Below are positions 37-31,527 of a stretch of DNA of 57,199 nucleotides, piece by piece (the stretch's first letter is position 1; each line of letters starts with the position of its first letter). Made by a program: the position numbers and the translations under genes. The notes below the pieces were generated by a model. That model was given only the letters and a program-made list of their open reading frames with translations, was not told the DNA's origin and did not search any database. The DNA is taken from assembly GCA_040880105.1 (NCBI GenBank), contig JBBDJA010000031.1:1-57199 (forward strand), given 5' to 3'. This DNA comes from Waddliaceae bacterium. Its GTDB lineage: Bacteria > Chlamydiota > Chlamydiia > Chlamydiales > SLOH01.

Positions 37-195
37 AACCCACTGATTAACGCAGCTTATTAAATTTTGTGCCTTTTTCAAGGGAATTCGAGAAAAGCGC
101 ACGCACTTAACTATTAAGTAGTTCAAGTTCAATTGTTTTTTCAAAGTTTAGTAAAAAGGCGCTAAATTAAACAATCTGAGTTATTCAGAGGGTCC
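37..195. repeat. Palindromic intergenic element, copy A (MITE-like, ~160 bp)
   Basis: Ends AACCCACTGATTAACGCAG...CTGAGTTATTCAGAGGGTCC. Left arm closely matches 31434-31519 and the reverse complement of ~22045-22131. Confidence 0.85.
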
Positions 196-234
196 TGTAG
201 TGAGATGATCATTGGCAGATGTTTAGGGAAGAAC

Positions 235-395
235 AGAAATCCTTGAATCAGTCGGGTTCTATCCAATTTTGCCTGCATTTTCTCTAAAACTCGAATTAAG
301 AATAGATCCTAACTATCAAATCGTAAAATGAGTGATTTTTTTTAATCCCCTCGAAATGGGCGCTAAGTTTAACCACATGAGTTACATAGTAGATG
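235..395. repeat. Palindromic intergenic element, copy B (degenerate, inverted relative to A and D)
   Basis: Aligns by eye to the reverse complement of copy D (TGAATCAGT..AATTTTGC..TTTTCTCTAAAACTCGAA; CCCTCGAAATGGGCGCTAAG). Right terminus decayed. Confidence 0.65.
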
Positions 396-600
396 GGATC
401 TTCCGGGGGATTTCCCGGGCTCCATCTCCTTGCGTCACAATGTAGATTGTTGACTTTAGAGGGATGGAAGATTTTGCTTGTTGTATCGTTTAGATTCTTG
501 CATCAGAACGAAGGGGGGAGTCCTATCTTATCGATTGCAGCGCATCTTGTCTCTATTATTGAAGAGGGAATGTGGTGATTTATTAAAGGATAGGCAGGCC

Positions 601-2148
601 TTAAGCCCAAGCGACATCTTCTTTTTCTTCTTTACTACTTTGGCTAGAGACAAGAGAGTGAAATTGTCGGCCCAAAGTCCGTGTAGAATAGATCCACATA
701 AAGATGACAATGGTAATAATAGAGGCAACAGCCGGAGACGATGCGCCGAGTGTGCCGAAAGTAAGGAGTAATCCTTGATGAATAAGGGAGCCGCCAGACT
801 TTCCAAAGCGTGAACCCACGCCATCGATGGCAGCTTTTCCACGGAGCTTGCTTTCATGATCGAGCGGAATAAAAGCCATCTCTTTAGTCGCATCAAAGAC
901 GGAGTATTTCGCAGCCTTGCTAAAGCAGTTTTGGCATGCGCCGAAGAATACTACCATTTGCAGCGGTGTTGCGGCAAAAAGTGACATTGAGATCCCTGAT
1001 AAGTTATCTTGCAGTAGGAGGAACGAGAAGAACCCTCCACTTGTGATGAGCATAATTACAGGTGTAATCAATGCGGTCTTTGTCCACCCAAAGCGTTTAA
1101 TCATTTGACCCATAAAGACAGCAGTTAGAGTAGAGGCAATCCCCATGTACATGGTAAGAGTGTTCATGAACTCGTTGTAATCGCTATGAGCAGGGTAGAG
1201 AAGGCGCAGTTCATTTTTCCAAATAATCTCCACCATATTGATCGTAAGGTTATATGCAATGACGATGACAGCAATACACATAAGATAGTTGGATTTGTAG
1301 AGGTAGCGAAAGCTCGAACGTAGCGATAGGCGTTTCTTTTTCGTTTTGAATTTTCCGTTACCTGCAGTGTGGATCACTGCGAACTCCTCTTTATCAAGTA
1401 CCTTTCGATTGAGCCACCAGAATAGAACCATAGAGATGATTCCGCACGCAGTAATAAGGAGCATTAGCAACATTACTGTCTGTTCCCAGCCATTGGATCC
1501 GAAAGGGATGTTAGGGTTGTAAACTTTACCTTGCGAAAACATATTAGCAACCACACCGGCGCAAATAGCTGCAATATTGGCGCCTATCGTCAATACGGTG
1601 TAAAAGCGCCTCGCTTCGCCAATTTTAGTCACGTCATTGGCTATTCCCCAAAATAATACAGTCAGAACAATGCTACCCCATAGTTCAGCAATGACATAGA
1701 AGAGGGTAAGGGACCAGTGGCAAAGCATGGAAAGTAAACCGCCGCATCCCATAGGCAGATATAAACTGCCCCATTCAGCTAAACTTGTCAGTTGAAAGCT
1801 TTCATAATTCGGGTAGATCACGAAGGCAAAGAGTAAAAAGTATCCAAGATAGCTGCTGATTAGCATATAAAACACGCGCTCTTGTGAGTATCGACTTGTG
1901 AGCTGTGTGAATATATAAGTAAAAAGAAATGCCATGGGAAGAAGAACCCACACCTTAATAAAGGGGATTGTCTCTGCACCTGAAGTCGAAACAATGATTG
2001 TGTCCTTCATCGGCCTTAAAATACTGTAATTAAAGCAGATCAAAAATAGAATAACGAGCATTGGGAGTAATTTTTGGAGCTCGTGCGCGTGTATGGGAAA
2101 GAAAATTGAACGGATCTTACTAAACTGAGTATCAGTATTATTTGACAT
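601..2148 (-). CDS. NTT/Npt (TLC family) nucleotide transporter, NTT2/NTT3-like paralog
   Basis: Multi-TM protein with FFPIHAHEL, ELWG, FWGIAN and FDATKEMAFIPLD..KLRGKAAIDGVG motifs. ATG at 2148 (MSNNT) preferred over the track start at 2181. Confidence 0.92.
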   Translation of the reverse strand: MSNNTDTQFSKIRSIFFPIHAHELQKLLPMLVILFLICFNYSILRPMKDTIIVSTSGAETIPFIKVWVLLPMAFLFTYIFTQLTSRYSQERVFYMLISSYLGYFLLFAFVIYPNYESFQLTSLAEWGSLYLPMGCGGLLSMLCHWSLTLFYVIAELWGSIVLTVLFWGIANDVTKIGEARRFYTVLTIGANIAAICAGVVANMFSQGKVYNPNIPFGSNGWEQTVMLLMLLITACGIISMVLFWWLNRKVLDKEEFAVIHTAGNGKFKTKKKRLSLRSSFRYLYKSNYLMCIAVIVIAYNLTINMVEIIWKNELRLLYPAHSDYNEFMNTLTMYMGIASTLTAVFMGQMIKRFGWTKTALITPVIMLITSGGFFSFLLLQDNLSGISMSLFAATPLQMVVFFGACQNCFSKAAKYSVFDATKEMAFIPLDHESKLRGKAAIDGVGSRFGKSGGSLIHQGLLLTFGTLGASSPAVASIITIVIFMWIYSTRTLGRQFHSLVSSQSSKEEKEDVAWA

Positions 2149-2247
2149 TTTTTGTTTTGTAAAAAAACTATTGTAACACAATCGGGTATATTAATACTAG
2201 AAAAAAGATCCAATATTCAGTAATCAAATTTCTTTTGAGCAGCTTAA

Positions 2248-2405
2248 GGAAGGTCGAATAACGCAGGTTAATTAAATTTTGCAGGATTTCTCTAGAAATT
2301 CTAAAAAATAATCGACCTTAACTATTTTATAGTTAAGTAAGTGCGTTTATTCGAATTCCCTTGAAAAGGCACTAAATTTAAAAGCCTGAGTTTTTCAGAG
2401 AGTCT
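2248..2405. repeat. Palindromic intergenic element, copy C
   Basis: GGAAGGTCGAATAACGCAG...CTGAGTTTTTCAGAGAGTCT. Perfect central palindrome CTTAACTAT-TTT-ATAGTTAAG at 2317-2337 sits at the element midpoint. Confidence 0.85.
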
Positions 2406-2425
2406 TTGAGTTGCTATAAATAGAG

Positions 2426-3982
2426 TTAAGCGGGCTGAGCCTCGGTCTTTGTGCTGTAAGAAGGTACAGGGGTAGTTGTTGACTGGGTCAATTCATTAAA
2501 TTCTTTACCGAGCTTTTTGGTTGCCCAAAACCAGCATCCAACGACTGTGAAGAGTATTGCGGCAACCCAAGGAGCCGAGGCGCTCAATGAGGAGAAGAAA
2601 AAGAGTAAGCTTTGATGGATAAACGAGCCACTCGATTTACCCATTCGATTGATGACACCGTCAATTGCAGCTTTGCCTTTCACAATCGTTTTTTTATCAA
2701 GAGGGACAAAAGCCATCTCCTTGGTCGCGTCATAAACAGTGTATTTTGCCGCTCGGCAGGCAATATTTTGAAAAGATCCGACCCATACGACAAGTGCAAG
2801 GGGAGAGACTCCAAAAAGGGAGTAGTAAAATGCAGAATGAGAATCTTTCGTAAAGAAAAGGAAAAAGAAAGCGGCGCTAGTCACAAAGACGATTATAGGA
2901 GTTGCAAGGGCGGTAAATGTCCAGCCAAAGCGTCTAATCGACTGTCCGGAGATTAAAAGTGAGGAAAGGGTCGCGACAACACCGATAATCGTTGAGACTT
3001 CGCTAAAATAGGTGTGGTATTCAGTTGGGTTCGGGAAAAGCGCATGCATCTCATGTTTCCAGAGAACCTCAACGAGATTGATCGCTAAGTTGTAGGCAAG
3101 AACAATAATGCCCATGAAGATTAGGTATTTTGAGCTCAAAAGATGGCGCATGTTTTTGCGCATCGAGTGGCGTTCTTTCTTTTCATTTGTCGGGGATGTA
3201 GATTCAGCTTCACTTGTTGAGACTACATTTCTGATGAGCCATTTAAATAAGAGGAGTGCGCAGAGTCCTCCAACCAATGTGATCGAGACAAGGATCATTA
3301 AGGTTTGTTCCCAAGCATTGGTTCCGTAAGGGATCCAAGGAAGAAATGGAATTCTAGAGACACTAATCGAGACCCAACCGCCGATAATCCCGGATATATT
3401 TCCCCCAAATCCAAATAAGGCGTAAAAACGTTTGGATTCACCCACTTTTGTCACTTGGTTGGCAAAGCCCCAAAAAAGGACGAAAAGAACAATGTTACCC
3501 CATAATTCCGACATCACATAAAACCCTGAGAAGATCCAGTGGCGAACCATTGCAACCAGTCCTTTACAACCGGCAGGAAGGACGGATGCCATAGAATCGG
3601 CTAAATGATCTAAACGAAGGGATTCTCTATGTGGAAACAGAATAAAGGTAAAAAGAAAGAAGAAAAGTAAGAACATCGAGAACATCAATGTAATCACGCG
3701 TTCGCGGCTCAGGTGGTTGTTCAGTCGCGTGTAAATAAAGGCAAGAAATATGGATCCCGGAAACATGAGCCAAACTTTAATAAATGGAATGACTTCGGCA
3801 CCCGAGTCTTTGGCGGTCACAACCAATGTGTCTTTCAGCATTCTAAGAATGTTGTAACCAAGTGTAATAAAAAAGAAAATCAAAAGCATTGGAATGAGTT
3901 TTTTAAGCTCATGCCGGTGAATGGGCCAAAACAGCGCTCGAAAGCCTGTGAAATTGGTAGAATCCGAGGGTGTATCGGACAT
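2426..3982 (-). CDS. NTT/Npt (TLC family) nucleotide transporter, Npt2/NTT2-like
   Basis: FWPIHRHELKK, KDTLVVT, SELWG, FWGFANQ and YDATKEMAFVPLD..KGKAAIDGV motifs. AGGAG RBS upstream. Confidence 0.93.
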   Translation of the reverse strand: MSDTPSDSTNFTGFRALFWPIHRHELKKLIPMLLIFFFITLGYNILRMLKDTLVVTAKDSGAEVIPFIKVWLMFPGSIFLAFIYTRLNNHLSRERVITLMFSMFLLFFFLFTFILFPHRESLRLDHLADSMASVLPAGCKGLVAMVRHWIFSGFYVMSELWGNIVLFVLFWGFANQVTKVGESKRFYALFGFGGNISGIIGGWVSISVSRIPFLPWIPYGTNAWEQTLMILVSITLVGGLCALLLFKWLIRNVVSTSEAESTSPTNEKKERHSMRKNMRHLLSSKYLIFMGIIVLAYNLAINLVEVLWKHEMHALFPNPTEYHTYFSEVSTIIGVVATLSSLLISGQSIRRFGWTFTALATPIIVFVTSAAFFFLFFTKDSHSAFYYSLFGVSPLALVVWVGSFQNIACRAAKYTVYDATKEMAFVPLDKKTIVKGKAAIDGVINRMGKSSGSFIHQSLLFFFSSLSASAPWVAAILFTVVGCWFWATKKLGKEFNELTQSTTTPVPSYSTKTEAQPA

Positions 3983-4017
3983 CTAGCTCCTTTTTTTATT
4001 TAAGGAATTTTGTCAAA

Positions 4018-4046
4018 ATTATACCACAAATCCGATTTCTTTACAA
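4018..4046 (-). promoter_or_regulatory. Sigma66-type promoter upstream of the NTT gene
   Basis: TTGTAA-N17-TATAAT with extended TGn on the minus strand. Confidence 0.6.
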
Positions 4047-4073
4047 GGAAATTAGGGGGATGAGATTTAGGAA

Positions 4074-5273
4074 TCACTTGCGTTCGCGTTTGGTTAAGGC
4101 TTCTATTCCCGGTAAAGTCCGTTTTTCGAGAAACTCAACAGCTGCCCCTCCTCCTGTAGATAAATGCGAGAAATGTTGAGCGAGTCCAGATTTTCGTATT
4201 GCAGCAACAGAGTCGCCGCCTCCCACGATTTTTACTGCATCTAAATTGGAAAGGGAGCGGGCTATGGCAAACGTTCCCTCACTAAAGGGCTTTTTCTCAA
4301 ATACGCCCAGCGGACCGTTCCAAAGAATGGTAGCGGCTCTGCGTATATTCCACCCGAAATTGGTGCGCGTCTTCGGTCCTATATCAACGCCGATAAACCC
4401 GTTGGGTATCCCATCTTCTGTTGTTACTGTTTCAATTTGCCTCGGATTTTCAAGATCATTTGTAATGATATGGTCTTCGGGAAGGTGGATTTTTGTTTTA
4501 GACTTTAAGAGTTCTTTGGCTTTGGGGATCAGCTCCTCTTCACATAGAGAACTTCCGATTTGAAATCCTTGCGCCTTTAAAAAGGTATAAGCCATTGCCC
4601 CGCCAATATACAGAGCGTCTACTTTATCAAGAAGAGCCTCGATCACGCCGAGTTTGGAGGAGACTTTAGCCCCTCCTAAAAGGGCGTAAAACGGTCGCTG
4701 CGGGTTTTCAAGAGCGTCTCTAAGAAAGTCGATCTCCTTTTTGAGAAGAAATCCCGCTGCCGAATGATCGGGAAAATACGTTGGAAGGGTCGTTACAGAC
4801 ATGTGGGCACGATGAGAGGTTCCAAACGCGTCATTGACATATACATCACCGTAAGAGGCGATTTCCTTCGCAAAACCGGGATCTTTATCCGGGTTTTTTT
4901 CACCAGGCTCAAAACGTAGATTTTCAAGTAGCAGAACAGAGCCCGGCAAAAGGTCTTGCGCCATTTTTTTCACTTTGGCTCCTCTACATGCCGGTGCCAT
5001 CTGTACAGGAGTGCCAAGTAACATAGACAAGTGCTTTGCGCATGGGGCAAGCGATAATTTAGGATCAATTTCTCCTTTGGGTCTGCCTAAGTGACTCATT
5101 AAAATACACGAGGCGCCTTGCTGAAGGGCGTACTTAATGGTAGGAACCGAGGCTACGATCCGACTATCGTCGGTAATTTTTCCGTGGGAATCTATGGGAA
5201 CATTAAAATCAACTCGGATGAGCACTCTTTTATCTTTGAGAGGTAAATCTTTGATTGATAAAATAGATGTCAT
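4074..5273 (-). CDS. pgk: Phosphoglycerate kinase
   Basis: RVDFNVP, SHLGRP, LLENLRF, NDAFG.SHRAH, GGAKVSSK, WNGPLGVFE, GGGDS and STGGGA motifs. Confidence 0.98.
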   Translation of the reverse strand: MTSILSIKDLPLKDKRVLIRVDFNVPIDSHGKITDDSRIVASVPTIKYALQQGASCILMSHLGRPKGEIDPKLSLAPCAKHLSMLLGTPVQMAPACRGAKVKKMAQDLLPGSVLLLENLRFEPGEKNPDKDPGFAKEIASYGDVYVNDAFGTSHRAHMSVTTLPTYFPDHSAAGFLLKKEIDFLRDALENPQRPFYALLGGAKVSSKLGVIEALLDKVDALYIGGAMAYTFLKAQGFQIGSSLCEEELIPKAKELLKSKTKIHLPEDHIITNDLENPRQIETVTTEDGIPNGFIGVDIGPKTRTNFGWNIRRAATILWNGPLGVFEKKPFSEGTFAIARSLSNLDAVKIVGGGDSVAAIRKSGLAQHFSHLSTGGGAAVEFLEKRTLPGIEALTKRERK

Positions 5274-5385
5274 AATAATTTTTACGATAGTTCATTTATT
5301 TTGGGTTGTCAAGTGAGATCAAATCCTTCATCCTTCAGAAAAACTCTTTGTATCGAGACAGTAGGATAAGTGTAGGTGTGGATTC

Positions 5386-5982
5386 ATGGTGCTGCATAGA
5401 AATGATTTAGATTGCGACCCGTTTAAACAATTTTTAAAGTGGTATGCGGATGTAAAAGATCAAAAGGTCTTTGAATACGATGCAATGACTTTGGCTACTG
5501 CAACAGCAGCTGGGCGTCCCTCTTCTCGAACTGTTTTACTTAAGTCTATTTCCGACGGCTTTATATTTTATACTAACTATGAAAGTCGCAAAGGGGTAGA
5601 GCTTGCGGAAAATCCGCATGCAGCGGCTCTATTTTATTGGAAAGAGGTCGGTCGACAGGTGCGAATTGAAGGAAGAGTGAGTAAAATTTCAAGAGAGGAG
5701 TCCTCCGCCTACTTTGCCACAAGGCCGCGTGAAAGTCAGGTTGGCGCTCTTGCTTCCTTTCAAGACCAAAAGCTTGCTTCAAGAAAAGAACTTGAGGATG
5801 CGTTTAAACGCGTTTCGACTCTTTATGAAGATAAACAAATTCCGATTCCCGAATACTGGGGCGGATACTGCCTAATTCCCGAATTGTTTGAATTTTGGGA
5901 GAGTGCACCCCATCGTTTACATGATCGATTCGAGTATGTGAAATCCAATAATCAATGGGAAATCCATCGTTTAAGTCCTTGA
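5386..5982 (+). CDS. pdxH: Pyridoxine/pyridoxamine 5'-phosphate oxidase
   Basis: AMTLATA, PSSRTVLLK, FYTNYESRKG, RQVRIEG, WGGY and EFW..RLHDR motifs. Confidence 0.97.
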   Translation: MVLHRNDLDCDPFKQFLKWYADVKDQKVFEYDAMTLATATAAGRPSSRTVLLKSISDGFIFYTNYESRKGVELAENPHAAALFYWKEVGRQVRIEGRVSKISREESSAYFATRPRESQVGALASFQDQKLASRKELEDAFKRVSTLYEDKQIPIPEYWGGYCLIPELFEFWESAPHRLHDRFEYVKSNNQWEIHRLSP

Positions 5983-5983
5983 A

Positions 5984-6145
5984 GGAATCTCTGAAAATGT
6001 AAGGTTTTATATTCAGAGCCTTTTTCGAGGGAATTTAAGAAAAAACGCACTCTATTAAACATCAAGCGGTTAACCTCGATTGATTTTTCGAAGTTTAGAA
6101 GAAATTCATGCAAAATTTAACTCACCTTACTGACTCAGAGGGTCC
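5984..6145. repeat. Palindromic intergenic element, copy D
   Basis: GGAATCTCTGAAAA...TGACTCAGAGGGTCC with internal GCCTTTTTCGAGGGAATT..AAAACGCACTC. Fills almost the whole convergent pdxH/pdxT gap. Confidence 0.85.
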
Positions 6146-6154
6146 TGAATGGAC

Positions 6155-6718
6155 TTACAGTAACTTTACAAAGAAGCGGTGGATGAGTAAGGAATCCGTA
6201 AGTTCCGGATGAAATGTTGCGCCAAGTAGATGATTTTGACGAATTAAAACCGGGCTATTGTTATGGGTGAGTAGAATCTCAACTTCGTTTGAGCAATTTT
6301 GAATGACCGGCGCGCGGATAAAAAGCGCCGGGATCTTTTTAGATTTCATTTCTAGAAAGGTTGAAAAGGAGTTGATTTGACTTCCGTAACCGTTTCTTTC
6401 TACTGTAATATCCATGGCATCTAGTGTTTTCATCTCTGATCCGGCGACTCTCTTTGCTAGTAAAATAAGACCGGCGCATGTGCCGAATACAGGACGTGAT
6501 TTTGCAAATTCAGAGATTGGATCGAGAAGGTTTTGGCGTGTCAGATGACGACTCATTGTCGTCGATTCTCCTCCGGGAAGGATTAAACCATCGCATAATG
6601 CAAGTTCTTCCTTTGTCCTGACTAGAAGGGGGTTGACATTGAGTTGTTGCAATTTTTCAAAATGTTTTGAAAACCCCCCTTGAAGGCTTAAGACCCCGAC
6701 TGTTTTTTTCACTACCAA
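6155..6718 (-). CDS. pdxT: PLP synthase glutaminase subunit
   Basis: [28 protein letters not shown] and FHPELT motifs. Confidence 0.97.
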
Positions 6719-7608: not shown

Positions 7609-7622
7609 TTTAGAACCTCTAC

Positions 7623-9413: not shown

Positions 9414-9423
9414 AGATAAAGGC

Positions 9424-13105: not shown

Positions 13106-13201
13106 TACTGCAGAATGAGATCATCTGCTGGGTCAACTATTGCAGAATGAGATCATCTGCTCGGTTAACTATTGCAGAATGAGTTGATTTGCTTGGTGAT
13201 C
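13106..13201. repeat. Tandem repeat, 3 x 32 bp, at the convergent argS/lipase junction
   Basis: TACTGCAGAATGAGATCATCTGCTGGGTCAAC / TATTGCAGAATGAGATCATCTGCTCGGTTAAC / TATTGCAGAATGAGTTGATTTGCTTGGTGATC; no spacers. Confidence 0.9.
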
Positions 13202-15708: not shown

Positions 15709-15855
15709 GAAACCCTTGACTCACTCAGATTGTTAAATTTAGCACCGCTCTTGAGGGAATTTTAGTGAAACGTAATCGTTTGACCATCAATTCATTTTTC
15801 GAATTTTAGAAAAAATTCATGAAAAATTAAATCGACCCGAGTTAATCAGACTCCT
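15709..15855. repeat. Palindromic intergenic element, copy E (centre shortened)
   Basis: GAAACCCTTGACTCACTCAGATTGTTAAATTTAGCACC..GAGGGAATT...TTTTTCGAATTTTAGAAAAAATTCATG..GAGTTAATCAGACTCC. Confidence 0.8.
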
Positions 15856-15957
15856 TCTTTAACTAATAGTATAGTTGGCGAATGTTAATATTTGATAAAT
15901 AATAGAATGGCTATCCGACTTATCACAGGTTGGTCATAAAGAAGTGGGGGGAGAATA

Positions 15958-19251: not shown

Positions 19252-21207
19252 CTATTTTTCAGCAGAAGCTTCCTTGATGCTTGTGATCAGAACGAGATCT
19301 TTAATAATGTTGTCTGCTTCGATCATTTGTAAATCATTTTTTCCAAATTGATCGTCTTCCTGCTCGCTTTCCGAAGTGCCGAATTTTTTAAGTTCTTTTA
19401 AAAACGTTTGGTAATTGCGGTTGTTTTCGATGCGGTAATCTGAATTTTTTTTCAAAGTCGCGATATGCTTTGTGTATGTGTCATTTTTTTTCTGGAGATT
19501 GTAAAGGTAGAGAGGTCGGATCTTTTGCCGTTGAAAAAATGGAATATCCGCAAGATCATCATCAAAATTTTCATTAATATGGTCATTATCTAGAGGGTAC
19601 TTGGCAAATTGCTCGCCAAAGTCCATTTCAGAAAGTAGACCCGGAACAACGATATCGGCAGGAACCCCTGTCATTTGGGGGGATTTACCTGATACGGTAT
19701 AGTAGCGCCCACGAGTGACTTTATATTCGCCTATAGGATTGATTTTGTCAGTATCTTGTGTACTGACCGTTAAGATTTGAAAAGTCCCTTTACCAAAGGT
19801 GTGATCATCACCGACAATGATTCCACGACCATAGTCTTGAAGCGCTGCGGCCACAATTTCTGCTGCGGATGCACTTGCCTTATTCACAAGAACAACAAGA
19901 GGACCGTCCCACATTGTCTTCCCATCAATATCGCGGAGGTGCTGAACGTTTCCGTTATGATCCATAATAGAGACAACGATTCCTTTGGTGATGAAAAGTC
20001 CTGTGACCCCAACCGCCTCTGTGAGGAGTCCACCGGAGTTGTATCTTAAATCGAGAATGACCCCTTTAATATTATGTTCCTTTTTTAAATCCTCAAATTC
20101 TCTTTTTAAATCTTTAGTCGAAGAATTTTCCGGATCTTGATAAAAAGTGTGTAGTTTGAGGTGTGCGATGACCCCGTCTCCGAAAGGCTCATGAGATACA
20201 TCATAGCGGGCCTCTTTTAAGACAACCTCACCCCGTGTGAGGGTGATTTCAAGCTTTTCCTCATCTTTCTCTTCGTCTGCTTTATTTCGCATAATTGTAA
20301 GAAGAACCTCAGTATCTTCTTTACCGCGGATGAGGTCGACAGCATCTACAATTGCCATCCCGACAATTGGCTCTCCGTTAACAGCGATAATGCGATCATT
20401 GACTCTTAGTTTTTTACTTAAGGAGGCCGGACCTCCTTCAATAATCCTTACAACAGTTAAACCGTTGATATCATCTCGCAATTGAGCGCCGATTCCAAAT
20501 AATCTTTGTTGGACATCAATCATGAATTGAGACGCTTCTTCCGGTGTAAAATACGATGTATGCGTATCTAAGGCGGATGCAGTCGATTTCAAGACCTTTG
20601 TTAGGACAAGGTTTTTCACATGAACTGGATCGTTATTTTGAAGTTCTGACTCTTGATTGAGACGATACTTTTTTAAACGCTGCTCTGCTAGTTCCCTTAG
20701 CTCTTCTTTCATTTTAATCGTTGTTTCGATTTGCAGAGCCTTTATTCGTGTTAAACGATTGAGAAGTTCATTTTTATCATGTGCCCATTCTAGATCTTTA
20801 AATTCTTTAGCAGAGACATTTTTTGGAAGTTCATCTAAATCGATTTGAGTTTCAAGTTCGTGTCTTCTCTCAATGGCGCCGAGCATTGTTTTGTGGATTT
20901 CATAAAACGTTGAAAAGTTGTTTTCCTTGTATTCTTTTAAGATCTCTTCTAGTTGTTCAGGTGTTGGGTTTACCCATTGGTTAATTTCGGTTTCAATAAA
21001 ATACGATTTTGTCGGATCTAGTTGGTCAAGAAAATTTTCAAGAGTTCTTTGGATGACTAAAGGAGTGAGCTCCTTATGAGTCACGTGGCTTTTCATGATT
21101 TCATTGACCTTTTCAACAACGATGGGGGGTTCAAGATTAGGGAGCTTGGCATTAAGAGGAAGGAGGGGTAGGAGTGTCGTTAAAAAGATGAGGAAAAATT
21201 TTATCAT
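19252..21207 (-). CDS. tsp: Tail-specific (S41) protease with PDZ domain
   Basis: Signal peptide, LDTHTSYF, GIGAQL (PDZ), DLRYNSGG, SASAAEI and TFGKGT motifs. Confidence 0.93.
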   Translation of the reverse strand: MIKFFLIFLTTLLPLLPLNAKLPNLEPPIVVEKVNEIMKSHVTHKELTPLVIQRTLENFLDQLDPTKSYFIETEINQWVNPTPEQLEEILKEYKENNFSTFYEIHKTMLGAIERRHELETQIDLDELPKNVSAKEFKDLEWAHDKNELLNRLTRIKALQIETTIKMKEELRELAEQRLKKYRLNQESELQNNDPVHVKNLVLTKVLKSTASALDTHTSYFTPEEASQFMIDVQQRLFGIGAQLRDDINGLTVVRIIEGGPASLSKKLRVNDRIIAVNGEPIVGMAIVDAVDLIRGKEDTEVLLTIMRNKADEEKDEEKLEITLTRGEVVLKEARYDVSHEPFGDGVIAHLKLHTFYQDPENSSTKDLKREFEDLKKEHNIKGVILDLRYNSGGLLTEAVGVTGLFITKGIVVSIMDHNGNVQHLRDIDGKTMWDGPLVVLVNKASASAAEIVAAALQDYGRGIIVGDDHTFGKGTFQILTVSTQDTDKINPIGEYKVTRGRYYTVSGKSPQMTGVPADIVVPGLLSEMDFGEQFAKYPLDNDHINENFDDDLADIPFFQRQKIRPLYLYNLQKKNDTYTKHIATLKKNSDYRIENNRNYQTFLKELKKFGTSESEQEDDQFGKNDLQMIEADNIIKDLVLITSIKEASAEK

Positions 21208-21961: not shown

Positions 21962-21971
21962 GCCCTTAATT

Positions 21972-22131
21972 AGCCTCTCAAGTTACTCAAGTCTGTTAAA
22001 TTTTGCACCCATTTGTTCTGAAATTCGAAAAATCAATCAATGTTATCTATTTAATGGTTAACTGAGTGCGACTTTATCGAATTCCCTTGGAAAAGGCACA
22101 AAGTTAATAAGCTGCGTTAATCAGGGGTTCC
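21972..22131. repeat. Palindromic intergenic element, copy F
   Basis: AGCCTCTCAAGTTACTC...GCTGCGTTAATCAGGGGTTCC. Right arm is a near reverse complement of the left arms of copies A and H. Confidence 0.88.
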
Positions 22132-22139
22132 TTAACGTT

Positions 22140-23873: not shown

Positions 23874-23900
23874 TTAACTTCCATTATTATATGTGTAAAA

Positions 23901-23928
23901 ATTTTACGGAAATCCCCTTGTTTGTCAA
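23901..23928 (-). promoter_or_regulatory. Sigma66-type promoter of recJ
   Basis: TTGACA-N16-TAAAAT on the minus strand. Confidence 0.55.
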
Positions 23929-24146
23929 TAATAATATTAATATGTGAAGGCTGTTGATTTTGCATGGGACATCAAGCCCTCGGATAGTGAAAAGCCATAT
24001 GTTTTATAGGGAGGGGATTTCGAGGATGACATGGCTCAAATCTAAGTAAATAAATTGTTTAATTTAAACTAGCTTTTAGAGCCGATTGCATTGTTTACGT
24101 ATTTTTTTATTGTTTTTTGCGTAGAAAGGCTTTACTTTCTATTTTA

Positions 24147-24309
24147 GGAACCTCTGAAAAACTCATGTTGTTAAATTTAGCACCTGTTTCCTGAAATTCG
24201 ACAAAAATGCATTCGTTTAACTATTAGATAGTTAAGATCGTTTGTTTTTTCAAATTTCAGTATAGATTCATGTAAAATTTAAATGAACTCGAGTGATTCA
24301 GAGGTTTCC
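24147..24309. repeat. Palindromic intergenic element, copy G (most self-complementary copy by eye)
   Basis: GGAACCTCTGAAAAACTC/GAGTGATTCAGAGGTTTCC termini; paired blocks TTAAATTT/AAATTTAA and CTGAAATT/AATTTCAG; central TTAACTAT-TAG-ATAGTTAA. Confidence 0.9.
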
Positions 24310-24374
24310 ACGAGGAAACTCTGAAATAGTCGAATCTAAATTGAATTTGACCTTAAGTATTTGATAGAGGAATT

Positions 24375-25166
24375 ATGATCTGTTGGACGATTTGCTGCGC
24401 AGAAGGATTTGAGCTGGAGCAGCTGAAAGAACATCTTGATAAACAGTATAAGTGTCGACTGTACGACCATGTGATCCATGTTGAAGTTAAAGAGAATCAA
24501 TTACCTAAGCAGCTTTTTTACTTTCGGTACGGTGTCATTGTGTTTTGGGGAATCTCAAAACAGCAGCACCAAAAGTATCTTGATCTCGCATTGCAGTTTG
24601 CAAGAGGAAAGCTGGATGAAAATGTCGAAGATGAGTTTGTTTATGCTTACGGTGATTTGTCGAAGATTAAAGAAAAGTGCATTATCCTTCCCGATCATGA
24701 ACTTTTAACTAAGCTTGCAGTTAGCCATGCCATGGCTCAATCTGCAAAACTTGAAGTTTTTGAAATCCGCATCGAAAAAACCATTCAAGAAATGCAGCCG
24801 ATTCCTCTGCAACTGGCAAAGACAGGAAGGCAACCTTTTTCCAGTCTTCAACTGAGAAGGAAGATGGGAAAACTTTATGTAGATAAAAGCTCAATCAACC
24901 TGCACTTTGATCTGCTCGATGTGCCTGATTTTTTCTGGGATTACGAAGAACTAGAACCCATTTATTCACTGACCGCAAACTATCTCGACATTAAAGATAG
25001 GGTCGATATTTTGAACCAAAAACTCCATGTGATGAGCGAGTTATATGAGATGCTCAGCGAAGAGCTGAAGCATCGTCACTCCTCCAGGTTGGAATGGATC
25101 ATCATTGTTCTTATTACCATCGAGGTGGTTGTCGTATTGTCAAAAGATATTCTTAAAATATTGTAG
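24375..25166 (+). CDS. RMD1/YagE (DUF155) family protein
   Basis: FRYGVIVFWG, SHAMAQSAKL, PDFFWD and RVDILNQKL motifs; LEWIIIVLITIEV C-terminal TM. Confidence 0.92.
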   Translation: MICWTICCAEGFELEQLKEHLDKQYKCRLYDHVIHVEVKENQLPKQLFYFRYGVIVFWGISKQQHQKYLDLALQFARGKLDENVEDEFVYAYGDLSKIKEKCIILPDHELLTKLAVSHAMAQSAKLEVFEIRIEKTIQEMQPIPLQLAKTGRQPFSSLQLRRKMGKLYVDKSSINLHFDLLDVPDFFWDYEELEPIYSLTANYLDIKDRVDILNQKLHVMSELYEMLSEELKHRHSSRLEWIIIVLITIEVVVVLSKDILKIL

Positions 25167-25202
25167 CTCCTCCCCTCGTTTTACACGGTTGGCCTTATGC
25201 CA

Positions 25203-28200
25203 CTACTCCTCTAAATCCGGAAGAATTAAATGTTTGTTCAAGTTGAGGTTCGGAGCCTCTTTCCATACACGATAGTTATCCGGAAATACCCAGTGACCAC
25301 TTTTTGCATGCTTTGGAAACCATGAATCTTGACTCATGAAATGTACTTCCTCAAGATCGGGGGTATATGTGGCAAGCTCAATCTTTTCTGTCCCTGGATT
25401 GACAAGGAAGATGAAATGCATGTTATGGATTCCACTTGTCCAGTTTGTGTCATGGGTGACAATTCCTGAGTTTATCAGGCGATCTTGCACTGTATCAGGA
25501 AGCGTTGAGACAATTTTTGTGTCCAAGTAAGGAGAAAATTGATGGATCCACCCCCCGTCGGTACTTTGTAGATCATCGCAGTGCGCTTTATAAGCGGCAT
25601 CTAGAATTTCTTTTCTAAACTCTTTAATTGTGATCCCATATGGAATTCTTCTTGCGCTATTGAGGAATCGTTTCGATCCTTGTTCAGAAAGCGCAATGCT
25701 ATCTTTTCTATTCCTTGCAAAGTGAATCAGCTTTTTTACTCGCTCAGGATCTTGAGCACTAAGTGTTTCTGCATAATTACTAAAAATTTTAGTAAATATC
25801 CTCTCCCAATGTTCATTCCGCTCTCCGATTTTAGGATCATGCGCTCGGCTTAAGCAGACAATATTTGCAATTGCTTGAACGCTTGGAGATGAAACTCCCT
25901 CGATGAGGCTGTCAAATATTTCTTTAGATTTTTCGCTAAGTTGTTGGCGAACCCAGTCTTCCTTTTCTCTGGGGCGACACGTCCACTGATTGTTTGCAAC
26001 AAACTCAATAACTGCATCTCGTTCCACTTTATTCAAACGACGATTTGCAATCGCTTTACCGGGTCTTTCTACATTCTTTTGTATATACTCATTGGTCGAG
26101 AGATCCGATGACCAAGCAGATTTAAAACTATCTTCAAATCCTCTCAATAAAAACGCGTGAACAGGGGATGTAACGATCACCGGATTTCTCGGATCGCAAA
26201 ACGATGCTTTTAAGTGATCCGGTTGATTTTTCACAAAATTGATACACTTAGCGAGAACTTCTTTTGGTGTTCCGTTAAAATTCTTCAATTTTGATGGTGA
26301 TGAGTTAAATCCAAAGTAGGTCTTAAGTACCGAATTAAAATCTCCACCCCACTTAAATACCCAAGGTTTTGATCTGATGTTGTGGGCATTAATTTTTAGC
26401 AGTTGTGATTCGCCAAGATCGTGACTAAGTGTTGAAATCATTTTCTTTGCGAATTCAGGATTAGCAAACTCTCTACATAGATTTTCAGCTCTAGAAGTGT
26501 ACTTACTTCCTCCACCTAAATAATCCGCTGTTTTCAAGATCACATCTTGCAGAAACCGTTGAAACTTTTCTGTTGTTCCAATCGATTCCCATTCATGCGG
26601 AGGGGAATAGTCGGAAAACGGTTGAACTTTTACATCCTTTTCATCCGCATCTAGCATTCGAAGTAAATGCGTTGAGTAGATAAAGTCTTTTGGCAAGCCG
26701 GAATCGTAAAGTTCATATCCAAAGTTATGATGGTCATTTGTCCCGTAATTATTATCGTCAAAGATTACCTTAGCATCCTCAATGTGTGGATTGTACTGAT
26801 ATCTCATTCGAGTTAACATTGGAAGGAAGCTCTCATCGAGAATTTCATTGTAAATTTCTCTCTCAGACTCAGGGAATTTATTTATGGATTGATCAAGGAT
26901 ATCTCTCATCAATTCAATCATACATAGAGAAATTGCATATTGCGACCCAAAGATAAGAACCATCGATGCAGCCGCCTGCTCATATGCACGGTGGAGCGGG
27001 TGGGTTGTTTGTGTCCCGAATGCAAACTGCGCTTTGGTAAGAAGCTCTTCTTCCGATCGGTTCTTTTCAGATCGAAGGATGCGCGAATTTTGCTGTGAAA
27101 AATAGGCGTATTTTGCAAGTTGCTTTAATAGGCAATTAACCGAAAAGGTTTTTGGCAACCAGCTTTGTGCCTTTAAAACAGCATCTTTTATATTTTCTAA
27201 TTTGAGAGCCGTACATGCTGAGATAATTCCCGGAGAATCATAAAGATAATGACCGCTTTGGGGTTTTGGCCAGCGATGACTTTTATCGGAACTTAGATTG
27301 TAGCACTGAGTTTTAAGAATCTGCCCCTTTCTCCCCAAAGTAATAATTGTATCTAAATACTCATTAGTCACTCTCTCAAGATAGGGGAATTTTCTCAGTT
27401 CGTTTCCAACGACGCGTTCAATATACCCTTGTTCTGTCAATTGAATCAGGTCTTCAACAAAAATACTGCTATAAGCAAGCTGGGATTTTATTAGACACGC
27501 TGTTGCAAAACAAGTTCCGGCTCTGCCTTGTCTCAAGTGACCCAGAAGGGCGCTTAATACAAAAATTTGGGCATGGCGTTTGGTAATGACTTCATCGTAT
27601 GAGAGTAAAAGGGCTGCTCGAATTGCAGAATCAGAGACAATATTTTTTGATTCAGGGGGGGAGATATCTTCGATCTGATTCAAAAGAGACATGTTATTTT
27701 GTAACTCTGCAACCACAAGATAAAGGTGATCCATCGCAACTGTATCAGCAAACCGCTCAGGAACTAACTGTTCGATATCCTCTATAACCCCAAAATTAAT
27801 TCCCCCCGTTTCAAGAACTAAAAACTTTGAAATCTCCACTGTCATTTTATGGAACAATGCTTGATCCGCATTTTGAATAGAGACATTTTTGTGTCTCATG
27901 TCATGGGCAATTAAGCTCTTTTTCACTCTAGAAATATATGTGCGAGATTTTGCGGCAAATTTCTTGATTGCTTGTGGAAAACTGTTTTTTAAGACGATCT
28001 GAATAGCCTTATTTGGTTCTTCCTGTGCAACTAGCAAAAGGTGACCGAGCCGATTATACACAAGAGCACGCGCCTTATCTTCAGGACTCATCTCTTCTTC
28101 AGCTGCTGTTTCACATATTTCCATTTGAGACCCTGATAATTCGGACTCAATTTGTTGTAAAAGATCTCCAATCTGCAAAGATGAACTAGCTAAGAGTGCA

Positions 28201-28598
28201 TCCTCTTTTCCCTCCTCACTTAATTGAGAGATGATTTGTCTTGCAAACTCAAGAACGACATTTTTTCTTCTTTTGTTTTTCATGAGAAGTTGCAAATGCT
28301 GCATTTGATAATCAATGCGCTCATCCCCGGTGGATCCTTCAATTGACTGTTCCATTCCAAATGCCTCTAAAGCGATCCCAGATTCGACCTTTGCATTTAA
28401 GTGCTGAATTGCCATTAACCTTTGTGTCGTCATTCCAAGGTAAAATGCATCTTCTCTTAACATTTCAATTGGACGGTCTTTATTGATTTTTGCAATTTTA
28501 TTTTTTACAAACTGATGTACGTTTTCTTCACTTTTTCTTTTCGAGAGAATGTTTTTAGGTAGAGGAGAAGATGAAGAGATTTCAGCTACTGGGTTCAT
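25203..28598 (-). CDS. Large hypothetical protein; candidate papain/calpain-like cysteine protease effector
   Basis: ~1130-aa open frame with a GGAGG RBS before ATG 28598. RQGRAGTCFATA, SPVHAF and HDTNW motifs; Ser-rich N-terminus. The ORF is secure; the function is inference. Confidence 0.6.
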   Translation of the reverse strand: MNPVAEISSSSPLPKNILSKRKSEENVHQFVKNKIAKINKDRPIEMLREDAFYLGMTTQRLMAIQHLNAKVESGIALEAFGMEQSIEGSTGDERIDYQMQHLQLLMKNKRRKNVVLEFARQIISQLSEEGKEDALLASSSLQIGDLLQQIESELSGSQMEICETAAEEEMSPEDKARALVYNRLGHLLLVAQEEPNKAIQIVLKNSFPQAIKKFAAKSRTYISRVKKSLIAHDMRHKNVSIQNADQALFHKMTVEISKFLVLETGGINFGVIEDIEQLVPERFADTVAMDHLYLVVAELQNNMSLLNQIEDISPPESKNIVSDSAIRAALLLSYDEVITKRHAQIFVLSALLGHLRQGRAGTCFATACLIKSQLAYSSIFVEDLIQLTEQGYIERVVGNELRKFPYLERVTNEYLDTIITLGRKGQILKTQCYNLSSDKSHRWPKPQSGHYLYDSPGIISACTALKLENIKDAVLKAQSWLPKTFSVNCLLKQLAKYAYFSQQNSRILRSEKNRSEEELLTKAQFAFGTQTTHPLHRAYEQAAASMVLIFGSQYAISLCMIELMRDILDQSINKFPESEREIYNEILDESFLPMLTRMRYQYNPHIEDAKVIFDDNNYGTNDHHNFGYELYDSGLPKDFIYSTHLLRMLDADEKDVKVQPFSDYSPPHEWESIGTTEKFQRFLQDVILKTADYLGGGSKYTSRAENLCREFANPEFAKKMISTLSHDLGESQLLKINAHNIRSKPWVFKWGGDFNSVLKTYFGFNSSPSKLKNFNGTPKEVLAKCINFVKNQPDHLKASFCDPRNPVIVTSPVHAFLLRGFEDSFKSAWSSDLSTNEYIQKNVERPGKAIANRRLNKVERDAVIEFVANNQWTCRPREKEDWVRQQLSEKSKEIFDSLIEGVSSPSVQAIANIVCLSRAHDPKIGERNEHWERIFTKIFSNYAETLSAQDPERVKKLIHFARNRKDSIALSEQGSKRFLNSARRIPYGITIKEFRKEILDAAYKAHCDDLQSTDGGWIHQFSPYLDTKIVSTLPDTVQDRLINSGIVTHDTNWTSGIHNMHFIFLVNPGTEKIELATYTPDLEEVHFMSQDSWFPKHAKSGHWVFPDNYRVWKEAPNLNLNKHLILPDLEE

Positions 28599-28733
28599 AA
28601 GGACCTCCAAGTTGTTCCTGAAGTTTGGTGGTAAGTGTTTTTTTCAGGATTGACGAATGAACAATTTTTGATTTAAAAGAAATGATATCAAAAGTAAAGG
28701 AAATATTTTACTGTAACCCAAAATGGGGGAATA

Positions 28734-30653
28734 ATGTCTTCAATATCTTCAATATCTTCCAATGAAGAGCGTTATGATTTACGTCCGAGAAAGAAACAAA
28801 AGCGGTTGAGACGAGTCGGAGAAAAGCGTGTCGAGGATATTGCTTCAAATATCTTAGAAAACTATCGTCGCACAAAATCTGTCGATAGAGAACCTATTGA
28901 CACATCGTCATCTGATGATGAAGAGTATTTTTTACCTGAAAGGCACAAACAAAACGGCTTGACAGCTGAAGATATAGCTTCAAGCATTTTAAATGATTTT
29001 CCTCGAAAAGAGATTGTTGGCAGAGAGAAAGAATCGCTTGAGATACTGAGTATGATTCTGCAGCCAAGAGAAGGGGTGCGTCCACTATTAATTGGGCCAA
29101 GAGGTGTGGGAAAAGAGTCTCTTGTCTCGAAGGTCTCTACAGCCTCAGCTTTGAAAAACAGAAAAATCGTGATGTTAGATTGTCATGAGTTGATCGCCGG
29201 GCCAAATAAGGATCTGTTAGAAACATTTAAAGCGCTGGTAGATTACACTTTATCAGATCCAAGAAATATTCTTTATTTGCAAAATATTGAAAAACTGGTT
29301 CTTACAGATTCTCTCACGGAGTACGCTCAAACACTATTTAAGAGGCAAATTTCACTCATCGGATCGATAAGCGAAGAGTCGAACGATGAAAAGATTCATT
29401 CTGTTCAAAAGTTGCTCTCTAAATACAGTTTTGTTCCCTATTTAGTAAAGGAATCACCCATTGAAGATGTTCAGATTATCGTTAAAAATTATTTAAAGGA
29501 GAATCCTGTCGATTTCAAAGTTGAGATTGAAGACGATGCCATTGATTGCGCGATCAAACTTGCAGCTAAATATGAGCAGAGAAACCCCTTTCCAATGAAA
29601 GCGATTCAACTCATTCAAGGCTGCGTCTGTCGCTACCTACTTTTGCACCAACACGGGAAAGTCACTCAAAAGGAGATACTGGAATACGTCTCTTCAAAAG
29701 CCAAGATTTCGGCTAGTGATTTAATGGAAGAGGCAATATTCGACGAAAAGCAATTTATAAGAAAAATTAGAGGAAATATTGTCGGACAAGATCATGCGAT
29801 ACAAATGGTTGCCGATAGAATTTGTTCATACAGGCTTGGACTTCTGGATTGCAATCGGCCTTGGGGCGTTTTTCTTTTTGTCGGCTCAACAGGGGTAGGG
29901 AAAACAGAGCTTTCAAAAAATATCGCCGATTTTCTCTTTAATGATAAAAATAAATTTATCCGGATCGATGGATCGGAATATAAAGAATCGCACACTGTCT
30001 CCAATCTAATCGGAGCACCTTTGGGATATGAGGGGAATGAAATCGGTGGGTTGTTGACCGAACCACTCCTTCAAGATCCAAAAAGAGTGGTCCTTATTGA
30101 TGAACTTGAAAAAGCGCACCCGGATGTTCAAAAGCTCTTGCTTCAGATTCTGGATAGCGGATCTATTTTAGATCGACGTGGGAAACGAGTCGACTGCTCT
30201 CAAGCGATCTTTATTATGACCTCAAATATCGGCTCTGATACCCTTTTTCAGTTAGGAGAAGAGGCTTTGACAAATGAAAAAGATGTCCTTGAAATCTTAA
30301 ATCCTCTTTTGGTTGAAGCATTTACCCCGGAGCTATGCAATCGATTCAATGCGATTGTTCCGTTCCAGCCATTGAATCAAAAACTTCTTCCCAAAGTCAC
30401 AGAGGTTCATCTTCACCGCATAAAAAAAAGGCTACAAGAACAAGCAGGAATTGATCTAGAGTGGACAGAGGATTTAGTAAGCTACTTTGGACAATTAGAT
30501 TTTGATTTTCGATTTGGTATGCGGGGATTCTGTAGAAAGATCGATAACCTCATTACCTCATACATTAGAGATATTGTGAATTTGCAAAAGGTGCGGCTAA
30601 AGGGAAAGATTATCTTTTCCACCCAAAATGGTGAAGTAATGGTTAGGTATTAA
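28734..30653 (+). CDS. Atypical ClpA/B-family AAA+ ATPase
   Basis: IVGREKE and GPRGVGKES (NBD1, Walker B degenerate); IVGQDHAI, GSTGVGKTE, GAPLGYEG, LIDELEKAHPDV, IMTSN and PELCNR (NBD2). Confidence 0.88.
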   Translation: MSSISSISSNEERYDLRPRKKQKRLRRVGEKRVEDIASNILENYRRTKSVDREPIDTSSSDDEEYFLPERHKQNGLTAEDIASSILNDFPRKEIVGREKESLEILSMILQPREGVRPLLIGPRGVGKESLVSKVSTASALKNRKIVMLDCHELIAGPNKDLLETFKALVDYTLSDPRNILYLQNIEKLVLTDSLTEYAQTLFKRQISLIGSISEESNDEKIHSVQKLLSKYSFVPYLVKESPIEDVQIIVKNYLKENPVDFKVEIEDDAIDCAIKLAAKYEQRNPFPMKAIQLIQGCVCRYLLLHQHGKVTQKEILEYVSSKAKISASDLMEEAIFDEKQFIRKIRGNIVGQDHAIQMVADRICSYRLGLLDCNRPWGVFLFVGSTGVGKTELSKNIADFLFNDKNKFIRIDGSEYKESHTVSNLIGAPLGYEGNEIGGLLTEPLLQDPKRVVLIDELEKAHPDVQKLLLQILDSGSILDRRGKRVDCSQAIFIMTSNIGSDTLFQLGEEALTNEKDVLEILNPLLVEAFTPELCNRFNAIVPFQPLNQKLLPKVTEVHLHRIKKRLQEQAGIDLEWTEDLVSYFGQLDFDFRFGMRGFCRKIDNLITSYIRDIVNLQKVRLKGKIIFSTQNGEVMVRY

Positions 30654-30654
30654 A

Positions 30655-31422
30655 ATGGGAAACGCAAAGCAGATTTTCACGCCCAAGCATGACCGTCCAA
30701 TGCATGTGGTCGTTTTTGGATCGGGTCCGGGGGTCAACCTACTTGGGCTTTTGCAAGCAGAAAAGGAGATGAAAGCGCTTTTTTCCATTCGGGCGCTCTT
30801 AGTCGATAAGCCATGCGGATTTGAAGAGATCGGAAAAGCGGCGGGATTACCTGTGATACTCAATTCCTTTAAGGAGTTTTTCAGTAAAAGAGGTGTAGAT
30901 GACATCACAGATGAAAAGACTCGCGTCGCCTATGATCTAGAAAGCGTCAAACGCCTTCAAGAACTCAATTTTTCAATCGATTTAATTTTTCTTGCAAACT
31001 ATATGCGGGTCATCTACTCACCGCTGCTTAACGCGTTTCCAAACGCTATTATCAATGTCCATCCATCCGATTTGACAGTGAAAGATACACAAGGTGAGAG
31101 GAAGTATAAGGGCGCTCATGCGGTCTATGACGCTTTGAAAGCAGGTGAGATAAAAACACGGTCGAGTGTGTTTTTAGTTGATAGCCATTTAGATACAGGG
31201 CCGTTACTTGTTTCAGGGCCTTTTGTTGATTATACCGAAGGGGTACCTGTCACAAAAGAGAAGGCAAAGCTTCATCAGGAGAAACAGAAAATTCAAAGTG
31301 ATCTACCCGCAGTAAAAAAAGCATTATCATTGATTGCTCAGGGAAAATTACTTGTCGATGAAAATCGAGGCATTTGGCTTGAGAATGAAAAGCTCGGGGA
31401 GTCGGGAATTATCTGCAGTTAG
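30655..31422 (+). CDS. PurN-like formyltransferase (GAR transformylase family)
   Basis: GSGPGVNL, LANYMR, INVHPS and LDTGP motifs (catalytic N, H, D present); starts 1 nt after the Clp stop. Confidence 0.82.
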   Translation: MGNAKQIFTPKHDRPMHVVVFGSGPGVNLLGLLQAEKEMKALFSIRALLVDKPCGFEEIGKAAGLPVILNSFKEFFSKRGVDDITDEKTRVAYDLESVKRLQELNFSIDLIFLANYMRVIYSPLLNAFPNAIINVHPSDLTVKDTQGERKYKGAHAVYDALKAGEIKTRSSVFLVDSHLDTGPLLVSGPFVDYTEGVPVTKEKAKLHQEKQKIQSDLPAVKKALSLIAQGKLLVDENRGIWLENEKLGESGIICS

Positions 31423-31433
31423 ATGACTCTTTA

Positions 31434-31527
31434 GAAACCCCTGATTAACGCAGCTTAATTAATTTTGTGCCTTTTTCAAGGGAATTCGACAAAAACGCAC
31501 TCAAATAACTATTAAATAGCGAAGATT
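31434..31527. repeat. Palindromic intergenic element, half copy H
   Basis: GAAACCCCTGATTAACGCAGCTTAATTAATTTTGTGCCTTTTTCAAGGGAATTCGACAAAAACGCACTC..AACTATTAAATAG; similarity ends near the central axis. Confidence 0.88.

Follow-up and report, generated by a model that had tools for sequence, protein, structure and literature searches.

A 161-bp palindromic, non-autonomous IS5-group element dispersed between the genes of a Waddliaceae genome

The 57,199-bp contig JBBDJA010000031.1 of a Waddliaceae bacterium (Chlamydiota; assembly GCA_040880105.1), the whole of which is called the window here, carries several copies of a rod-like palindrome that is dispersed through the genome to which it belongs (G000, of which the window is contig C31; 1.67 Mb, 90% complete, 91% coding). 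The palindrome is almost certainly a non-autonomous MITE (miniature inverted-repeat transposable element) of the IS5 group of insertion sequences (IS), 161-162 bp long, non-coding, and flanked by 4-bp duplications of the form TWWA. The best explanation as a whole, to which we assign a probability of about 0.6, combines this identification with an account of the shape based on loop geometry, contact with the replication clamp, copying between the arms, and polar mismatches. As the reason for the shape, these 4 factors are proposed tentatively, at somewhat less than even odds. The element serves itself, not its host.

Seven copies and one half copy had been listed in a sequence-only reading of the window, and all were recovered, with refined bounds, by a profile hidden Markov model built from 60 copies in the genome, those of the window being part of the training set. 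The 7 copies score at E values of 4e-40 to 2e-28 and the half copy at 4e-21. Across G000, the profile returns 138 non-overlapping matches at E<0.01 and 122 at E<1e-5, while the reversed genome, scanned as a control, gives 0; the family covers 0.9% of the genome. The consensus is 161 bp, lengths run from 159 to 164 bp, and identity from copy to copy ranges from 55 to 97%, with a median of 75%. Shorter than 500 bp, devoid of a transposase gene, and present in 122 matches, the element has the properties of a MITE. Moreover, the intergenic placement noted for the window extends to the whole of this densely coding genome: only 1 of the 122 matches lies mostly within an open reading frame (ORF) of at least 100 aa, and all others are mainly intergenic. 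Rickettsia palindromic elements insert in frame in coding genes, and a relationship to them was rejected on this count. Preservation of the reading frame (161+4=165) was likewise rejected as a reason for the length, given that lengths run from 159 to 164 bp and that copies avoid genes.

The element has been mobile in the past. Among 58 copies with both ends, 24 are flanked by an exact 4-bp duplication, against 5.8 expected by cross-pairing of flanks, a figure reached in 0 of 20,000 permutations, and duplications of 2, 3, and 5-9 bp are at chance level. The duplicated target is TWWA, which explains why 10 of the 58 copies overlap a stop codon; for IS5-group elements, a YTAR-like 4-bp duplication is the rule. 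Correia and ERIC elements duplicate a TA dinucleotide, and an element of that type was rejected, since 2-bp duplications occur here in 5 of 58 copies against 6.0 expected. The 4-bp duplication recurs in 8 of 20 copies in G001 (a sister species with 77.6% identity and a 57% complete assembly, of which 140 of some 180 contigs, or 698 kb, were covered, yielding 63 matches and 21 full copies), in 8 of 14 copies from other chlamydiae, and in 10 of 20 from Pseudomonadota. Two nested copies (C7:4980-5140 and C3:11202-11362) have entered older copies at their central TTAA, which is duplicated. From 42 comparisons of orthologous gaps, 3 were removed because the flank matched another element (C7:4980, C20:18855, and L169:3791), and in 36 of the 39 that were kept, the gap in the other species is without the element. 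At 6 of the 25 full-length sites, taking out the element and 4 bp restores the length of the gap to within 15 bp, and a comparison of L124 with contig C11 shows an exact empty site with a single TTTA. No G000 copy is more than 91% identical to any G001 copy, whereas G001 has internal pairs at 99%; thus, each lineage amplified its own copies. Two points weigh against so simple a history: 19 of the 25 empty sites are off by more than 15 bp, most of them being too diverged to judge at 78% identity, and 2 orthologous sites keep faint end-like sequence. Contigs assembled from 3 DNA runs of one study (X1-X3; 2 of these may be the source) contain no joint that skips a copy over window positions 1-40000, a result that is uninformative on current activity because rare variants are lost in contigs.

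The ends of the element point to its partner. IS5-type termini had been suspected from the window copies, and IS5-group elements indeed share their first 14-16 bp with the rod and show exact 4-bp duplications in 34 of the 91 loci with called ends. Ends of the GGAACCTCTGAWWAA type are common to L013, L015, many of these 91 IS loci, and MITEPsy1 of Pseudomonas syringae. In G000 itself, a remnant at C32:5402-5742 combines an IS5 left end of 12 bp with a DUF772 pseudogene (3 stops) and 53 bp of element arm, TTAA lying on both sides; in the surrounding stretch (L011, C32:4044-7214), it lies between 2 minus-strand ORFs that by eye look like ankyrin-repeat genes. The nearest intact proteins, of 313-315 aa with DUF772 and DDE_Tnp_1 domains, are 75-83% identical to the remnant and start with MSQLSF, and plasmid matches carry the annotation ISXfu1-family or IS5 family. 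The remnant is matched in 2 of 5 carrier genomes versus 7 of 396 others (p 0.004, with the reservation that kin are not independent). IS5 fragments are also present in G141, G343, G526, and G642; they were looked for and not found in G064, G410, G678, and G705. Like full IS of this group, the element has the terminal 14-16 bp, an AT-rich 4-bp duplication, and a remnant transposase in the same genome; unlike them, it has no transposase gene, and none of 127 IS5 loci is homologous to its interior. The element has likely borrowed a DDE transposase of the IS5 group, of which only a broken remnant is left here.

Several observations must be set against this identification of the partner. No intact transposase was found in G000 (90% complete) or in G001 (57%), where the DDE_Tnp_1 profile is without a match, and for this reason mobilisation in trans, as proposed in the sequence-only reading, is something that we infer. 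Moreover, the best E value of the element interior against the 127 IS5 loci is 0.28, with no homologous IS end, which means that a chimeric C32 unit is possible. A rod element in G526 lies within the CTAG duplicated by an IS5, and the right end of that IS5 is itself not a palindrome; since rod and non-palindromic IS end adjoin there, the C32 unit is likely a deletion chimera of an IS and a neighboring MITE. The interior being foreign to these IS loci, the element is of type II, not a simple internal deletion. A type I origin, by internal deletion of a parent IS, was rejected on the same E value of 0.28 and on the difference between the right end of the G526 IS and the adjoining rod. A search for the intact parent in genome and metagenome scans gave IS5-group elements at most 70-74% identical to the remnant, and with the transposase P0002 as query, the best was 64% identical among the matches listed; in neither case did any carry the element interior. 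In G343, IS5 transposase fragments adjoin rod elements (L020:1372-1490 and L529), and the same genome holds an internal-deletion derivative of IS5 that is not a rod (contig C129, L534:142-300, minus strand), made up of a left end, a piece of transposase, and a right end with TTAA on both sides; at about 159 bp by hand count, it comes near the rods in length.

Despite these gaps, the claim of an undescribed MITE, likely moved in trans, is borne out by the target duplications, empty sites, nested insertions, and IS5 remnant, and a described family does not account for it: Rfam 15 gives no match at gathering score in the window or in 16 relative loci, only plant miRNA hairpins below threshold. 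A restriction to chlamydiae, in contrast, did not survive. When only the two 12-bp ends were required, at a permitted spacing of 149-179 bp, the pattern was found in 5 of 401 Chlamydiales genomes (G000, G001, and 3 in two other families; control 0) and in 10 of 301 Pseudomonadota genomes (control match in 1). From this wide range of permitted spacings, 13 of 14 fetched chlamydial matches (16 in total) are 160-161 bp, as against 159-161 bp for 17 of 20 fetched Pseudomonadota matches (27 in total), the latter from 8 genomes. Among the 6 distinct matches in viral contigs with an interior fold at z<=-6, 4 are 160-161 bp and the other 2 measure 89 and 100 bp. Thus, rods that have these ends occur at 159-162 bp in 3 other Chlamydiales genomes, 8 Pseudomonadota genomes, and viral contigs. 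Searches by sequence reach less far: blastn with copy G over 60 relatives finds matches only in G001 plus one weak match of 32 bp; a sequence-only model run on 151 genomes gives just marginal matches (E 2e-5 to 9e-4) in 5 others, with one true class member (L309); plasmids queried with 3 copies give no match; and a strict pattern over viral contigs gives 0. The interiors of distant families barely align (G000 against Pseudomonadota, score 23, versus 22 when flipped and 12 when shuffled), and homology among the most distant families is weak, resting on a chain of partial similarities.

A fixed length across such divergent interiors calls for an explanation. One suggestion comes from the distance between transposon ends, which acts with helical periodicity near the 150-bp persistence length of DNA (PMC3464196). 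By analogy, the transposase would pair ends that lie 160 bp apart, about the persistence length, and the geometry of the resulting loop likely fixes both the length and the spacing of the A/T tracts. Deletions of at least 6 bp are found in 16 of 79 copies, and in no case does the closest relative have the same deletion. Three deleted copies share a breakpoint at a short direct repeat, yet they are not mutual nearest kin. Hence, deleted copies do not form subfamilies, and shortened copies likely cease multiplying. There are difficulties with giving the length so much weight. Other elements with the same ends and duplications are 89, 101, 105, 139, and 173 bp, and MITEPsy1 is 100 bp, so that 161 bp is not required for IS5 ends; the length belongs to the rod class and not to IS5 MITEs in general. 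The bin of 118-148 bp is under-sampled, as one sequence family of 145 bp dominates among the matches listed. As a separate observation, the IS5-end miniature elements L500, L494, L491, L502, L387, L517, L524, and L319 are 89, 91, 101, 105, 139, 149, 171, and 173 bp, and several of these lengths lie close to a multiple of 10 bp away from 161, in a set too small for statistics.

The shape itself had been described as one long imperfect hairpin. This holds for most copies and not for all: the 79 full copies have a median folding z score of -6.1, and 65 of them score below -3, but copy D of the window, at -0.7, folds no better than its shuffles, and the arms are distinguishable paralogues, with 65 Watson-Crick pairs and 13 mismatches in the consensus. 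The central axis, TTAACTAT-N3-ATAGTTAA, falls at the midpoint in copies C and G, as had been seen in the sequence, and RNAalifold, applied to MAFFT alignments, returned the rod in part only. The two arms, though related, can be told apart, and this gives every copy a polarity. The strand opposite the model folds better in 43 of 58 G000 copies, in 20 of 21 G001 copies, and in 19 of 20 copies from other chlamydiae and viral contigs (the exception, L337, is flipped by alignment, giving 20 of 20 once oriented). The same strand, with arm type read by eye, folds better in all 17 Pseudomonadota copies of 159-161 bp. The copies are kin, and counts of strand preference are therefore not independent. 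Furthermore, the polarity in G000 is weak, with a median of 4.4 kcal/mol versus 3.1 in shuffles, which must be counted against any strong use of it, and the shuffles lean to the same strand in 52 of 79.

Such a consistent preference could mean that the rod is a working single-stranded form, present at the fork or as a transcript, purine-rich, often with tandem G.A loops read by a protein, and needed for spread. Apart from the agreement of G000, G001, other chlamydial, viral, and Pseudomonadota copies on one sequence-defined strand, this possibility draws on the internal loops, which recur near positions 29-30, 39-41, 57-59, and 69-72, on closed GA/GA loops, found in 12 of 30 rows on the better strand and in 0 of 30 on the other, and on double-sided changes that keep pairing, of which there are 165 versus 71 in shuffles. 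Against these stand the kinship of the copies and the fact that energy models reward GA/GA, which makes the GA/GA count partly circular; closed GA/GA loops occur in none of the 5 G000/G001 rows and none of the 3 from G343. Counts of G.T and A.C mismatches, 243 and 316 in G000 and 53 and 101 in G001, are near equal in several Pseudomonadota copies, and directly after stop codons, no bias to the transcribed strand is seen (14:13 and 6:11). Terminal inverted repeats (TIRs) with 4-bp duplications point to double-stranded DDE chemistry. Rare variants, moreover, number 25 G.T and 20 A.C, without strand preference, and of 37 rare double changes only 15 restore pairing; the fold is therefore a property of multiplying lineages, not of settled copies. 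The idea that shape is kept over sequence thus stands across element lineages and fails at insertion sites. Finally, selection against folding of the opposite strand would yield the same polarity, and the present data fit equally selection for folding on one strand or against folding on the other. On balance, we regard a working single-stranded rod as unlikely, though it is the strongest of the competing readings.

How the symmetry persists is suggested by exchanges between arms. Whole segments have been converted at C24:4083 and C17:34218, where right-arm sequence lies in the left arm, and copy A of the window shows the reverse; the G001 copies L160, L193, and L169:3791 have private tracts mirrored at both ends. 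Copying from arm to arm by template switching likely maintains the palindrome. Such conversions, being directly visible, also fit a wholly neutral history in which one ancestral palindromic MITE spread horizontally, its length simply inherited, its symmetry kept by template switching, and its orientation set by the transposase alone. Common descent is suggested by the interiors of distant families, which in most pairs align better in the same polarity than flipped, and changes after insertion look neutral. However, length stays within 2 bp across families with barely alignable interiors, although single copies do lose 6-18 bp (the 16 of 79 mentioned above), and unopposed copying should erase the internal loops, yet these persist at similar positions. 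We consider this neutral history quite improbable.

The reading preferred here, in which the shape results from constraints on the element itself, leads to replication. Leading strands were taken from the skew of G over C at third codon positions (GC3), and the sign agrees with the G-rich position of a cluster of short basic proteins that we take to be a ribosomal protein operon. In 58 of 77 G000 copies, it is the G-rich strand that carries the model strand (58:19, p 1e-5, stable over thresholds) and the same holds for 19 of 27 G001 copies (19:8, p 0.052). The bias runs the same way in 4 gene contexts (convergent 16:3, divergent 11:3, tandem on the lagging strand 18:3, tandem on the leading strand 9:6), and directly after stop codons orientation is unrelated to transcription. 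Accordingly, the better-folding strand usually avoids the lagging-strand template. The polarity is not a product of mutational skew, as the model strand is C-rich and yet sits on the G-rich strand. Hairpins on the lagging-strand template promote deletion, and the polar mismatches, purine-rich on one strand and pyrimidine-rich on the other, likely keep a stable hairpin off that template. Intact copies are oriented 34:7 and damaged ones 16:12 (p 0.028), the minority orientation being enriched for damage. How such an orientation might arise at insertion is suggested by peptides of IS5a transposases that bind the beta clamp, with the consensus QLSLF/L, and by the IS5a orientation bias of some chromosomes (PMC3971601). 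On this model, the closest intact transposases would couple insertion to the beta clamp through their N-terminal QLSF motif, while its orientation would be set by the unequal arms.

Several points count against this part of the argument. The strand assignments rest on GC3 skew along contigs, not along a closed genome. The contrast between intact and damaged copies is a single test of modest strength, and orienting a damaged copy is more difficult. The bias is no stronger with age (young 24:6, old 34:13), contrary to what selective loss predicts. SbcD is not over the cut-off in any of the 5 carrier genomes, so that cleavage by SbcCD cannot be invoked. The IS5a bias, for its part, runs in either direction, with no fixed one (PMC3971601).

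The orientation data also bear on the idea that the elements are domesticated host devices, whether terminators, RNase III sites, small RNAs, or binding sites for chromosomal proteins, a domestication that had been raised from the window copies. The intergenic positions and the 10 of 58 copies overlapping a stop codon would suit such a role, as would tandem contexts, in which the better strand is the mRNA strand 24:12 (p 0.065), and transcripts of MITEs are RNase III targets in Neisseria (PMC10969869). The tandem trend, however, follows from replication orientation (18:3 for lagging-strand genes, 9:6 for leading). Sites are species-specific, as the 36 empty comparisons of 39 show, and the 2 that G000 and G001 have in common are both decayed; no Rfam family matches; orientation after stops is 14:13; and rare changes show no preference for the fold. 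Domestication is thus not supported and is very improbable indeed.

Among described elements, the closest is MITEPsy1, which is non-coding, IS5-related, and probably mobilised by ISPsy2, and whose left end, GGAAGGTCTGAAAAAGCC, equals a common end variant here over 11 bases (PMC3189936). It duplicates 4 nt, CTAG or YTAA, and transposes in vivo; unlike the present element, which is 161 nt and symmetric over its whole length, it is 100 nt with an 18-nt TIR, and no cross-phylum fixed length, strand polarity, or replication bias is described for it in the text consulted (PMC3189936). The whole-length stem-loop MITEs Correia/nemis of Neisseria, ERIC of enterobacteria, Nezha of cyanobacteria, and QMITE2 of Coxiella resemble our element in size class, AT-rich intergenic targets, a stem-loop predicted to be stable, and the existence of empty and filled sites, but they differ in ends and duplications, the latter being 7-9 bp in QMITE2 (PMC3184786, PMC10969869). 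The main text of these two reviews does not mention chlamydiae. MITEs from Thiomargarita, with duplications of 10 bp or TATA, are other elements (PMC4853749), and the expansion of IS in Rhabdochlamydia likewise concerns other elements (PMC9723776). In the literature searched, there is no chlamydial MITE and no account of a fixed-length rod class.

Many dispersed long hairpins are also a feature of Rickettsia palindromic elements and of REPINs with their RAYT (HUH) transposases. A REP/REPIN-RAYT system was rejected because Y1_Tnp (PF01797) was not found in any of the 5 carriers (two of them less than 90% complete) and because the element has TIRs and 4-bp duplications, not REP tags. MITEs are well known, and chlamydial genomes are usually considered repeat-poor. 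The kind of element, an IS5-type MITE, is therefore known; what is new is the fixed length, the polarity, and the link to replication. With length, a polar fold, and an orientation tied to the fork, the class is a sharp test case for why many bacterial MITEs are long hairpins. Conservation of length and of a one-strand hairpin across distant bacteria likely affects the spread or survival of the element. Should the single-strand fold be in use, IS5-type transposition would have a step that has gone unrecognised; if it is not, the class would show a parasite tuning a palindrome to survive replication. The most far-reaching version, a cross-phylum class of parasites of about 160 nt with IS5 ends, built as polar single-strand rods with fixed loops, whose fold is a step in replication-fork-coupled transposition with single-strand recognition in a DDE system, is doubtful. 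Two close intact transposases, P0002 and P0003, are public, and variants in length, loop, and orientation are thus open to assay.

Within the window, copy A (36-195, plus strand, 160 bp) has a mutated left terminus and has lost its duplication, and its right end, with left-arm-type sequence, is the product of the arm exchange already mentioned. Copy B (about 236-396, minus strand) is decayed and adjoins it, with model positions 8-160 at 389-238 (E 2e-28). Copy C (2248-2405, minus strand) lies between 2 nucleotide-transporter (TLC) genes, with flanks TCAA and TTAA. Copy D (5984-6145, plus strand, 162 bp) has an exact 4-bp duplication, TGAA at 5980-5983 and 6146-6149 (plus strand), that overlaps the TGA stop of a pyridoxamine-phosphate oxidase gene; the orthologous G001 site is without a copy, and a short end-like motif remains there. 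Copy E (15709-15856, plus strand) lacks about 14 bp across the central hairpin through a deletion, and its orthologous G001 site is also without a copy. Copy F (21970-22131, minus strand, 162 bp), with TTAA at 21966-21969 and 22132-22135, sits between the convergent genes HTH_17 (Euo-like) and recJ. Copy G (24147-24308, plus strand, 162 bp) has the top score in the window and has lost its duplication (TTTA/CACG). The half copy (31434-31526, plus strand; model positions 3-93), upstream of a tRNA gene, stops just beyond the central hairpin. Four further end remnants had been reported, and none is significant alone: those near 42100, 39630, and 34320 score at E 1.3, 5.8, and 18, and that near 47815 has no match. 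By eye, 2 of them appear to be true ends, namely a probable isolated terminal remnant at 42094-42107 (minus strand) and a possible right-end remnant at about 34319-34332 (plus strand).

Other features of the window deserve brief mention. The 3′ end of contig C18 and the start of the window (1-55) run into one common stretch of about 55 bp that includes one mutated element end, the left end in copy A and the right end in the C18 copy; this could reflect inversion or recombination between copies, or an unassembled repeat. Around the 34320 remnant (34302-34362), one X1 contig differs at 8 positions, which suggests another strain or allele. The genes for TLC nucleotide transporters number three (601-3982 and 40453-41988), 2 of them in tandem with copy C between. 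Short tandem repeats occur at 13106-13201, where three units of 32 bp lie between argS and a lipase-like gene, and at 39321-39398, where the 5′ part of an Mrp/NUBPL-type gene has three exact units of 24 bp. Two paralogous genes for tail-specific (S41) proteases lie at 19252-21207 and 32377-34296.

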